A stretch of 64,000 bases of DNA from assembly GCA_965206325.1 (NCBI GenBank), contig OZ242208.1, positions 1,721,557-1,785,556 of the forward strand, in the 5' to 3' direction. The translations under genes were made by a program, and so were the position numbers. Below are positions 19,066-20,615 of the stretch, in pieces. The DNA comes from Gammaproteobacteria bacterium. Lineage in GTDB: Bacteria; Pseudomonadota; Gammaproteobacteria; Tethybacterales; G965206325. The notes beneath the pieces were generated by a model. The model had not been told where the DNA came from and did no database searches. It saw only the letters and a program-made list of their open reading frames with translations. Position 1 is the first letter of the stretch; each line of letters opens with the position of its first letter.

Positions 19066-19155
19066 TATAATCGCCGCTTTCCAATCAAACCCAACGAAGG
19101 ATTAAAATGGAAAACACGACTATCATCGCCCGCCTTTTGGCGATTCTCTGCCTGA
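19066..19155 (+). repeat. promoter + 5'UTR + signal-peptide module, copy B
   Basis: Reverse-complement match to 12226-12325. TATAAT at 19066-19071, AGGA RBS, ATG at 19107. Confidence 0.65.
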
Positions 19156-20615
19156 TTCTGTCGGGTTTGATTGCCGTCAGCACGGCTAACGCCGACTCCC
19201 ATCTGCCCGACTGCGTGGCGAATCCGAAATGCCTCTTATTTGGGGAATTGCAGGCGGCGGAAAAGTGGGATGAGCTCGGTGCCAAGTGGCAATCTTTTAC
19301 TGCCGCCGATTTGCAGGCGATGATTAACGGTGGGGCAGATGTCCACGCGAAAGATAATGACGGTCAAACGCCACTTCATTTGGCGGTAGTATTAGGAAAA
19401 GCCAAAGTAATTCCTATCCTTGTCAAAGTGGGAGCAGATGTCCACGCGAAAGATAATAGCGACAATACTCCGCTTCACAATGCGGCATTTGTCGGAAATG
19501 CTGAAGTAATTCCTGTGCTTATCAAAGCGGGGGCAGATGTCCACGCGAAAGATAATGACGGCAATACACCGCTTCACATGGCGACCACTCAAGGACATGC
19601 CGAAATAATTTCTATCCTTCTCCAAGCCAAGGCAGATGTCAATGCGAAAAATAATGAAGGCGTGACTCCGCTTCAATTTGCAACACAAGAAAATCATGCT
19701 GAAATGATTTCTGTTCTTGTCAAAATGGGGGCGGATGTCAATGCAACGAACAATAATGGCGGGATTCCGCTTCACACGGCAGCAGTAATCGGAAATGCCG
19801 AAGTGATTTCCGTCCTTGTGCAAGCAGGGGCAGATGTTCATAAGAGAACTAATAAGGGCAGAACTCCGCTTCACTTTGCGGCATATAGCGGACATGCCAA
19901 AGTAATTTCTATTCTTGTCAAAGCGGGAGCAGATGTCAATGCAAAAACAGATGGCGGCGTGACTCCGCTTCACATAGCGGCGCACAAGGGACATGCCGAA
20001 GTGATTTCTGTCCTTCTTCAAACAGAGGCAAATATCAATGCAAAGGATAAGGACGGCCGGACTCCGCTGGATTGGGCGACAGAGGAAAAGCATTTGGATG
20101 CCGTCAGGGAGTTGGAAAAAGCGGGGGCAAAGCAATTTGACTCGCTTACGGGTTTGTACTACGATTTATTTACTACCCGCTGGAATTTTGAAATGGCGGT
20201 AAATATTTTAGTTCTCATCGTCCTGTTGGCGGTGTTGGGATTTTTGTATTTCAAAGCTTTTCAGCTTTGGCGTGAGTTTTGCGGCTGGCGTGAAAGCGTC
20301 GACGGCAAGTTTCCTTCGCCGAAAATCGTCAGCATTCTCTACTTGTCGCTACTACCTGCCATGGCGTTTTTCAATATTGGCGAAGTGCCTCCTGAGTGGG
20401 CGCACTTTACGCGAATGGAAGTTTCTAGGCTCCAAGCATCGGAAGGATTCTTTTTTGCATTAGGTCTATTGTGGGGCGCTCCTTTTTTTGCAGCCATTAT
20501 TATGAGGATTGCGAAATTAACGAAATATGGGCGAGAAAATCAATCGCTGGTATTTCGGCGCGCTTTACTATTAGTTTTGGTGGGATTTGCAGTCGCCGTA
20601 GGGCGGGGTGAGTGA
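19107..20615 (+). CDS. ankyrin-repeat protein with N-terminal signal peptide and C-terminal multi-TM domain
   Basis: About nine tandem 33-aa repeats (G.TPLH.AA..GH..V...L...GADVNAK). N-terminus MENTTIIARLLAILCLILSGLIAVSTANA. C-terminal ~150 aa contains 3-4 hydrophobic helices. Lower GC than surroundings. Confidence 0.85.
   Translation: MENTTIIARLLAILCLILSGLIAVSTANADSHLPDCVANPKCLLFGELQAAEKWDELGAKWQSFTAADLQAMINGGADVHAKDNDGQTPLHLAVVLGKAKVIPILVKVGADVHAKDNSDNTPLHNAAFVGNAEVIPVLIKAGADVHAKDNDGNTPLHMATTQGHAEIISILLQAKADVNAKNNEGVTPLQFATQENHAEMISVLVKMGADVNATNNNGGIPLHTAAVIGNAEVISVLVQAGADVHKRTNKGRTPLHFAAYSGHAKVISILVKAGADVNAKTDGGVTPLHIAAHKGHAEVISVLLQTEANINAKDKDGRTPLDWATEEKHLDAVRELEKAGAKQFDSLTGLYYDLFTTRWNFEMAVNILVLIVLLAVLGFLYFKAFQLWREFCGWRESVDGKFPSPKIVSILYLSLLPAMAFFNIGEVPPEWAHFTRMEVSRLQASEGFFFALGLLWGAPFFAAIIMRIAKLTKYGRENQSLVFRRALLLVLVGFAVAVGRGE

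Follow-up and report, generated by a model that had tools for sequence, protein, structure and literature searches.

A predicted exported, membrane-anchored ankyrin-repeat protein encoded within a gammaproteobacterial proVWX operon

Here we describe an ankyrin-repeat gene that interrupts a proVWX transporter operon in a Gammaproteobacteria bacterium (assembly GCA_965206325.1, contig OZ242208.1, positions 1,721,557 to 1,785,556; this stretch of 64,000 nucleotides (nt) is called the window, and positions refer to it unless another locus is named). We propose that this gene, inserted in proVWX, encodes a lineage-specific, membrane-anchored protein that resides in the cell envelope and binds a protein partner, rather than an injected effector, and we hold this reading at a probability of roughly 0.6.

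In the series of events that we envisage, the gene would have entered proVWX together with, or next to, an ltaE-like gene and an element resembling repetitive extragenic palindromic (REP) sequences. Its product would be exported by the Sec pathway, after which the signal peptide would be cleaved. An eight-repeat solenoid, probably stabilised by a Cys36-Cys42 disulfide, would then lie in the periplasm, with a C-terminal domain of four helices holding it to the inner membrane, and by analogy with RARP-1, AnkB and Bd3460 the solenoid would serve as a protein-binding surface within the envelope. Transcription would most likely come by read-through from the proV promoter, with proX keeping a promoter of its own.

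Results

An intact gene encodes eight near-consensus ankyrin repeats

The open reading frame (ORF) at 19107-20615 (+) is intact, encodes 502 amino acids (aa) and has an AAGGA ribosome-binding site ahead of its start. These coordinates, and the assignment of the product to the ankyrin repeats, agree exactly with a preliminary description of this DNA that was made from its letters alone. The protein belongs to the ankyrin-repeat family (PF00023/PF12796), with scores far above the Pfam cut-offs for both Ank (E=3.7e-67, 218.9 bits against a cut-off of 21.1) and Ank_2 (E=5.5e-60, 200.4 bits against 27.3).

The repeats occupy codons 85-345 (19359..20141, +), as delimited by Pfam Ank matches, AlphaFold2, a low GC content at third codon positions (GC3, 0.41) and a 99-nt periodicity that runs across 19332-20126 of the DNA. 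TPLH-type motifs recur eight times at a spacing of 33 aa (residues 88, 121, 154, 187, 220, 253, 286 and 319), and the AlphaFold2 model shows a capping helix at the N-terminus and then eight helix pairs, its predicted local distance difference test score (pLDDT) being >90 at roughly residues 110-340. Motifs and helix pairs thus give eight canonical 33-aa repeats behind a capping helix, fewer than the nine or more that had been counted in the preliminary description. In a search of PDB sequences, the top matches of the repeats were ankyrin-1/2 and DARPins, and by their sequence the repeats are close to the eukaryotic/DARPin consensus. The capping helix belongs to an N-terminal module (codons 30-84; 19194..19358, +) that also holds a Cys pair, Cys36 and Cys42, in an LPDC(x5)C motif kept in all of the paralogues described below.

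The protein is predicted to be exported and held in the inner membrane

Codons 1-29 (19107..19193, +) read, from sequence and hydropathy, as a signal peptide with a predicted signal-peptidase I site between ANA and DS. The N-terminus, MENTTIIARLLAILCLILSGLIAVSTANA followed by DS, has the layout MENTTIIAR-LLAILCLILSGLIAVS-TANA, with one Arg in the n-region, a 16-residue hydrophobic core (hydropathy peak 2.72) and Ala at positions -3 and -1. Inspection of the signal-peptide sequence found neither a lipobox nor a twin-arginine motif, and we predict that it is a cleavable Sec type I signal peptide. The TANA motif is conserved in the paralogues P0004, P0018 and P0013, and its retention across paralogues together with the Cys pair fits an exported, disulfide-bonded domain.

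The C-terminal membrane domain comprises codons 346-502 and the stop codon (20142..20615, +) and was delimited by hydropathy, loop charges and AlphaFold2. Four hydropathy peaks (residues 358-388, 406-425, 447-469 and 479-500; Kyte-Doolittle >=1.87 in a 19-residue window) mark four hydrophobic helices at about residues 362-384, 406-424, 447-468 and 485-498. Counted together with their flanking residues, the predicted cytoplasmic loops 1 and 3 have 9 Lys/Arg between them, against 2 Lys/Arg and 4 Asp/Glu in the predicted periplasmic loop 2; by the positive-inside rule, these charges agree with an ankyrin solenoid that lies in the periplasm and is held at the inner membrane. We thus predict a polytopic inner-membrane anchor with the N-terminus out. 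The signal peptide and C-terminal membrane anchor named in the preliminary description are consistent with the sequence, the hydropathy profile and the four modelled helices.

This membrane domain appears to be an orphan, with homologues limited to the same gene in other strains. When residues 328-502 were compared with 5.8 billion clustered proteins in a word-indexed search, the sole match was the truncated allele P0001, and a full HMMER search of residues 345-502 against 1.84 billion representatives added, beyond the gene itself, P0121 alone. P0121 was judged a spurious homologue, being a tandem-repeat protein in which a 19-residue stretch was matched. On the same domain, Pfam at E<=0.1 returned DUF3262 alone (13.8 bits against a cut-off of 27), and no family was assigned. 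Over the last 170 codons, the window and the allele at locus L084 differ by 14 synonymous and 6 non-synonymous changes, which indicates purifying selection on the reading frame of the membrane domain.

The ankyrin gene is a derived insertion in proVWX

The gap between proW and proX spans 2,961 nt and holds the ankyrin gene, a 167-nt tandem duplication and an ltaE-like gene. The ankyrin gene therefore does lie between proVW and proX, as had been described, but it does not separate them alone. We compared this arrangement with two related gene clusters (L086/L087 and L088/L089) and with a reference set of 80 proVWX loci. The related clusters have a ProX that is 79-80% identical and an eight-gene neighbourhood in common, at 55-80% protein identity; in these clusters the HalD-like, epimerase, FAA-hydrolase and two short-chain dehydrogenase/reductase (SDR) genes are 54-71% identical and stand in the other orientation. 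Their proW and proX genes are 70 nt apart in L088/L089 and overlap in L086/L087. In the reference set, proV, proW and proX are contiguous in ~70 of the 80 loci, and the exceptions hold unrelated material. Synteny in relatives thus bears out the insertion that had been suspected from the window.

Composition points the same way. GC content falls to 0.49 at 19-21 kb and at 11-12 kb, against about 0.55-0.58 elsewhere in the window, and the ankyrin gene has the most deviant composition of the window: its GC3 of 0.473 is the lowest among 47 ORFs (mean 0.615, standard deviation 0.047), about 3 standard deviations below the mean, and its Karlin codon bias B is 0.373 as compared with about 0.2-0.25 for ORFs of similar length. 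The deviation is uneven, however. GC3 is 0.655 and native-like in codons 1-84, 0.41 in the repeats and 0.48 in the membrane domain, so the low GC reported for the gene holds for the gene overall but is confined to codons 85-502. The second low-GC islet that had been pointed out, at 11.1-12.3 kb, is equally real (GC 0.49), and its ORF at 11790-12284 has a GC3 of 0.485. Taken together, the contiguity of proVWX in the reference loci, the adjacency of proW and proX in the related clusters and the lowest GC3 of the window support the ankyrin gene as a derived insertion.

The nearest named homologues of ProX come from metagenome-assembled genomes (MAGs), namely 'Gammaproteobacteria bacterium' MAGs (79%) and Arenicellales MAGs (64-68%). 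A search for DNA uptake sequences, made with a Neisseriaceae origin in mind, gave no match, and no integrase or transposase was found in 19039-21999. A phage origin was rejected, as there was no relative in 2.9 million viral contigs and no prophage context.

Other interruptions were seen in comparable operons. In two Arenicellales loci (L004 and L006), unrelated sequence of about 2.4 kb stands between proW and proX. In L086 (4994-8974) and L087 (1608-8974), where ProX is 80% identical, proV and proW are separated by an Eco57I-like restriction-modification gene, beside which one of these two strains has additional methyltransferase genes. The interruption of operons by accessory genes seems common in this group.

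A shared 5' cassette links a family of predicted exported ankyrin proteins

In this species the ankyrin gene has paralogues, and together they make up a family encoding predicted exported ankyrin proteins; its members share one 5' cassette, differ in their C-termini and sit in unrelated operons. Among the top full-length matches of the protein are paralogues on sibling circular contigs of ~1.97-1.99 Mb from the same sample. P0004 (L085 10001-11611) lies between prpB-prpC and a stretch containing prpD, and carries two copies of the Cys-pair N-module. At L091 (8001-9980), P0018 comes after holA, and between it and an aldehyde dehydrogenase gene there is another ankyrin gene, of 233 aa. The C-termini of P0018 and P0013 are retropepsin-like aspartyl protease domains that score above the Pfam cut-off, and the GC3 of every paralogue is below that of its neighbouring genes.

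The cassette, delimited by alignment (19066..19178, +), consists of a TATAAT box, a leader, the AAGGA ribosome-binding site, the ATG and the first 24 codons, and reads GCGATTCTCTGCYTGATTCTGTC. A stretch of ~115 nt is common to the ankyrin gene, P0004 (L085) and a 164-aa ORF of the window, with similarity beginning at the TATAAT box. When the window was scanned for exact or near-exact matches to the cassette pattern, two sites alone were found, with 0 expected by chance. The second copy (11790..12325, -), located by tblastn with the leader, by alignment and by pattern matches, is fused to the 164-aa ORF in the low-GC islet. Further into this ORF comes a second hydrophobic stretch, where a lipobox (LSGC) occupies residues 67-70; Pfam assigned the ORF no family, and past the cassette it bears no relation to the ankyrin gene. 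From its sequence, it looks like a leader fused ahead of a lipoprotein gene. Two versions of the leader occur across the loci, MENTTIIARLLAIL... and MENA[NT]AKAVILAIL..., and their distribution suggests gene conversion. A search of JGI metagenomes found no exact match to the cassette.

The cassette also bears a likeness to the 5' end of proX. Both the proX 5' end and the proW-proX spacer of L088 resemble it in register, through a -10 box, the start codon and a K(S)AVI(L/A)AIL(V)C core. In two comparisons, local alignment scores between cassette and proX 5' sequence lay above those of all 1000 shuffles. For 3 of 4 cassette variants, no other non-self site of the window scored as high as the proX 5' region, whose lead was only about one score unit, and for 2 of the 4 this region ranked first among 43 gene starts. 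Homology between the two is therefore suggestive, the match being marginally above background. This likeness and the fact that codons 1-84 have a native-like GC3 leave room for the idea that the cassette is a captured copy of the proX 5' end, from the -10 box and ribosome-binding site to the start codon and the core of the signal peptide, behind which foreign, low-GC ankyrin DNA was fused, the whole being copied afterwards; we regard this scenario as tentative and rather doubtful.

Repeat number varies between strain alleles

An identical 502-aa protein is encoded on two circular contigs of ~1.95 Mb in ENA assembly ERZ25069326, which are 99.1-99.5% identical to the window over 18901-22050. In the same gene context, a 1.98 Mb contig from a second sample carries a 7-repeat allele, P0002, and a further contig carries the 5-repeat allele P0001. 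Repeat number is thus 8, 7 or 5 across strains, a variability that suggests fast evolution of the binding surface. The ORF is intact in the window, L001, L002 and L084, and an unbroken frame (502/469 aa) is present in four high-coverage genomes from two samples. The P0001 allele, at L083, has a frameshift after the first transmembrane helix, which is probably an assembly error because the same 3x contig also splits dnaG and a permease gene.

Genes and elements around the ankyrin gene

The genes on either side encode a betaine/proline/choline ATP-binding cassette (ABC) transporter. The ATP-binding subunit gene, proV (16926..18014, +), was assigned by NCBIfam TIGR01186 (355.5 bits against a cut-off of 326.6) and Pfam ABC_tran, and scored below the ProV and ChoV equivalog cut-offs. 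The permease gene, proW (18022..19038, +), was assigned by Pfam BPD_transp_1 and NCBIfam PRK10952, its top NCBIfam match (383 bits, E=9e-115, below the equivalog cut-off of 439). The gene for the periplasmic substrate-binding protein, proX (22000..22998, +), was assigned by Pfam OpuAC and NCBIfam PRK11119 (419.2 bits against 215). Because ProW and ProV fall below their equivalog cut-offs, the substrate of the transporter is uncertain.

Downstream of the ankyrin gene lies the ltaE-like gene (20929..21969, +), which by NCBIfam encodes a pyridoxal phosphate-dependent threonine aldolase of the GntG family (453.7 bits against a cut-off of 230; low-specificity L-threonine aldolase, 414 bits against 312). 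Gene callers place its start at the ATG equivalent to 20929, and a longer ORF begins at 20905. Its GC3, measured on that longer ORF, is 0.670 and native-like, so the gene may have been relocated rather than imported.

Between the ankyrin and ltaE genes, a repeat search found a tandem duplication (20590..20923, +) of a 167-nt unit, the two copies being 99% identical. Each unit holds a ~100-nt palindrome resembling REP sequences or miniature inverted-repeat transposable elements (MITEs), whose hairpin has a folding energy of -75.4 kcal/mol (z=-10.5). The ankyrin ORF ends in the first unit, which provides its final 8 codons and its stop codon, and the duplication repeats the first 27 nt of the longer ltaE frame. 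The same palindrome occurs elsewhere in the strain genomes (L001 142-239; L083 1077-1174), and this recurrence points to a dispersed REP/MITE-like element. The low-coverage strain contig L083 has a single 167-nt unit.

No terminator-like site was seen between proW and the ankyrin gene. A consensus sigma-70 promoter (21941..21970, +; TTGACA, 18 nt, TG-TATAAT, matching 12/12 hexamer positions with an extended -10) sits within the 3' end of ltaE, 30 nt ahead of proX, and would allow proX to be expressed independently of the interrupted operon. After proX, a consensus match marks a hairpin like that of an intrinsic terminator (23025..23056, +; 14-bp stem, 9 GC pairs, T7 tail). An Rfam scan of the window returned one tRNA and nothing at the ankyrin locus. 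In L001 (34x, circular), proX has a 1-nt deletion at about 13040 (window about 22146), outside a homopolymer run and with substitutions nearby, which splits it into ORFs of 70 and 212 aa; this copy may be a pseudogene.

Beside the rightward block at 16926-22998 (+), genes for a HalD-like oxygenase, an NAD-epimerase/dehydratase, an FAA hydrolase and two SDR proteins occupy 12364-16832 (-). With these enzymes and ltaE, proVWX may belong to a module for the uptake and catabolism of a quaternary amine or a hydroxy-amino acid, instead of being a classical osmoprotectant importer. On the left side of the second SDR gene (below 12364) lies a strain-variable spot that resembles a defence island. Its cargo is the 164/157-aa ORF in the window and L083, a TIR-domain protein of >1100 aa in L084, an N6/N4 methyltransferase in L002 and a 328-aa protein in L001. 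A 121-aa ORF found between the two SDR genes in other strains is absent from the window. At the far end, 57808-63924 (-) holds a 2038-aa ORF of normal composition with no Pfam match at E<=1e-4.

Weighing the readings

Several points weigh against an envelope-resident, membrane-anchored protein. Signal-peptide cleavage and membrane orientation are themselves predictions from sequence, and AlphaFold2 models the four helices of the membrane domain at low confidence (pLDDT 35-60). At about 14-20 residues the fourth helix is short, and since the REP-like unit encodes its end, the C-terminus seen today may be a secondary one. The genes next to the ankyrin gene are proW and ltaE, with no catalase, peptidoglycan hydrolase or partner gene adjoining it. 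A sigma-70 scan found no -35 element ahead of the cassette TATAAT, so the cassette may be unable to act as a promoter by itself. Coverage is 3x on the contig that holds the 5-repeat allele, where indel errors are evident, and the 'host-associated' status of the organism is an assumption. Separately, a reading as an immunity protein was discarded, since no toxin or hydrolase gene adjoins the ankyrin gene.

A host-targeted effector, whose ankyrin domain would leave the bacterium by release or translocation and act on a eukaryotic host, for example on phagosome maturation, in the way proposed for the ankyrin proteins of sponge symbionts and phages, would account for the near-consensus, eukaryote-like repeats, for the expanded family with its strain-dependent repeat number and for a small genome of ~1.95 Mb. 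Ankyrin proteins with signal peptides from symbionts and phages reduce phagocytosis, according to one report (bioRxiv 10.1101/608950; citing Nguyen et al. 2014), and many transmembrane ankyrin proteins of Wolbachia are suspected of surface display (PMC2045654). However, four C-terminal transmembrane helices after a Sec signal should hold the protein in the inner membrane, and the phage ANKp proteins are noted to be without transmembrane domains (bioRxiv 10.1101/608950). RARP-1, a Sec-signal ankyrin protein once assumed to be an effector, proved to be periplasmic (bioRxiv 10.1101/2022.02.23.481736). The annotated parts of the 64-kb window contain no secretion-system genes. Models of Dot/Icm Ank effectors (NCBIfam NF043029, NF043023 and others) scored far below their cut-offs, the best being AnkY at 153.5 bits against 600, and such matches reflect generic repeats alone. 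The Sec signal, the four helices and these scores weaken the effector role at which the preliminary description had hinted, and we consider it unlikely.

We also find it improbable that the gene is a selfish or neutral, functionless insertion that is heading for decay and is tolerated because proX has its own promoter. Such an insertion would fit a 3' end that runs into a REP-like element and takes its stop codon from it, an unstable repeat number, the frameshifted L083 allele and the disruption of other operon genes nearby (the restriction-modification genes of L086/L087 and the proX frameshift of L001). Against decay stand the frame that is intact in four high-coverage genomes and the 14 synonymous versus 6 non-synonymous changes in the membrane domain, and the L083 frameshift lies on the contig whose other split genes make an assembly error probable.

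A functional accessory of the ProU transporter, such as a periplasmic partner of ProX or ProW, would suit a gene within the operon with no terminator ahead of it and an ankyrin domain predicted, like ProX, to be periplasmic, but it is very improbable: none of the related or reference proVWX loci examined has the gene, and the paralogues that share its leader occur in unrelated operons (between prpC and prpD; after holA), which makes a role in betaine transport unlikely.

Discussion

Exported ankyrin-repeat proteins are among the most cited 'symbiosis factors' of uncultured bacteria, yet to our knowledge the location or partner is known for very few of them. The present case is a caution in this respect, as its sequence favours an envelope-resident, membrane-anchored protein over an injected effector. 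The class itself is already known, since symbiont ankyrin proteins with signal peptides and transmembrane helices have been recognised before. Because the class is well known and the function here is deduced, practical interest is modest.

The protein has its repeats in common with the Dot/Icm effectors of Legionella and Coxiella (AnkY, AnkH, AnkG and AnkX), whose NCBIfam models were the top-scoring ones and all remained below their cut-offs. Dot/Icm ankyrin effectors leave the cytoplasm through a type IV system and lack a Sec signal.

A closer likeness is to RARP-1 of Rickettsia, AnkB of Pseudomonas aeruginosa and Bd3460 of Bdellovibrio. RARP-1 was long assumed to be an effector and was then shown to be periplasmic, and AnkB and Bd3460 also act in the periplasm (bioRxiv 10.1101/2022.02.23.481736; PMC4686830). 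These three proteins, like the one described here, begin with a Sec signal followed by ankyrin repeats, and they bind proteins in the bacterium's own envelope; the protein here is likened to them through generic repeats only. It differs from them in its tether, the C-terminal four-helix domain. AnkB adjoins katB, and Bd3460 adjoins a DD-endopeptidase (Bd3459-Bd3460), whereas no partner gene adjoins the ankyrin gene here, which is thus not of the type encoded beside its partner enzyme.

Wolbachia offers a second comparison. Strain wPip has 60 ANK genes, many with transmembrane domains (PMC2045654). Like the protein here, Wolbachia ANK proteins combine repeats with transmembrane helices (wPip pk1 has 8 repeats and 2 transmembrane helices) and sometimes with signal peptides, and they form a large paralogous family that varies between strains in a small genome (PMC2045654). 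They have one or two helices, in contrast to the four of a membrane domain here that has no detectable homologue. The organism differs as well, the nearest named ProX matches here being from Gammaproteobacteria MAGs.

The ankyrin proteins of sponge symbionts and the 'Ankyphage' (Nguyen et al. 2014; Jahn et al. 2019) likewise pair a signal peptide with repeats, come from uncultured bacteria (marine in their case) and are classed as eukaryote-like. Those proteins are described as being without transmembrane domains and are thought to be released (bioRxiv 10.1101/608950), unlike the protein here, which is predicted to be anchored and, judged by its sequence, is not of the released ANKp type with a signal peptide and no transmembrane domain.

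The locus provides a natural experiment: several complete genomes of co-occurring strains carry alleles of 8, 7 and 5 repeats, relatives have empty sites, and paralogues with one leader have differing tails. This material could be used for studying how such families spread within a genome. Of most interest is the origin of the shared leader cassette and the manner of its spread. If the cassette was indeed captured from proX, the fusion would have given ankyrin DNA transcription, translation and Sec export in one step, and copies of the leader-plus-cargo unit would then have reached further operons and acquired different cargo, examples being the lipoprotein-like 164-aa ORF, the paralogues with retropepsin tails and P0004. 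In that event, the family would make it possible to trace how eukaryote-like repeats become exported proteins in a bacterium with a small genome.

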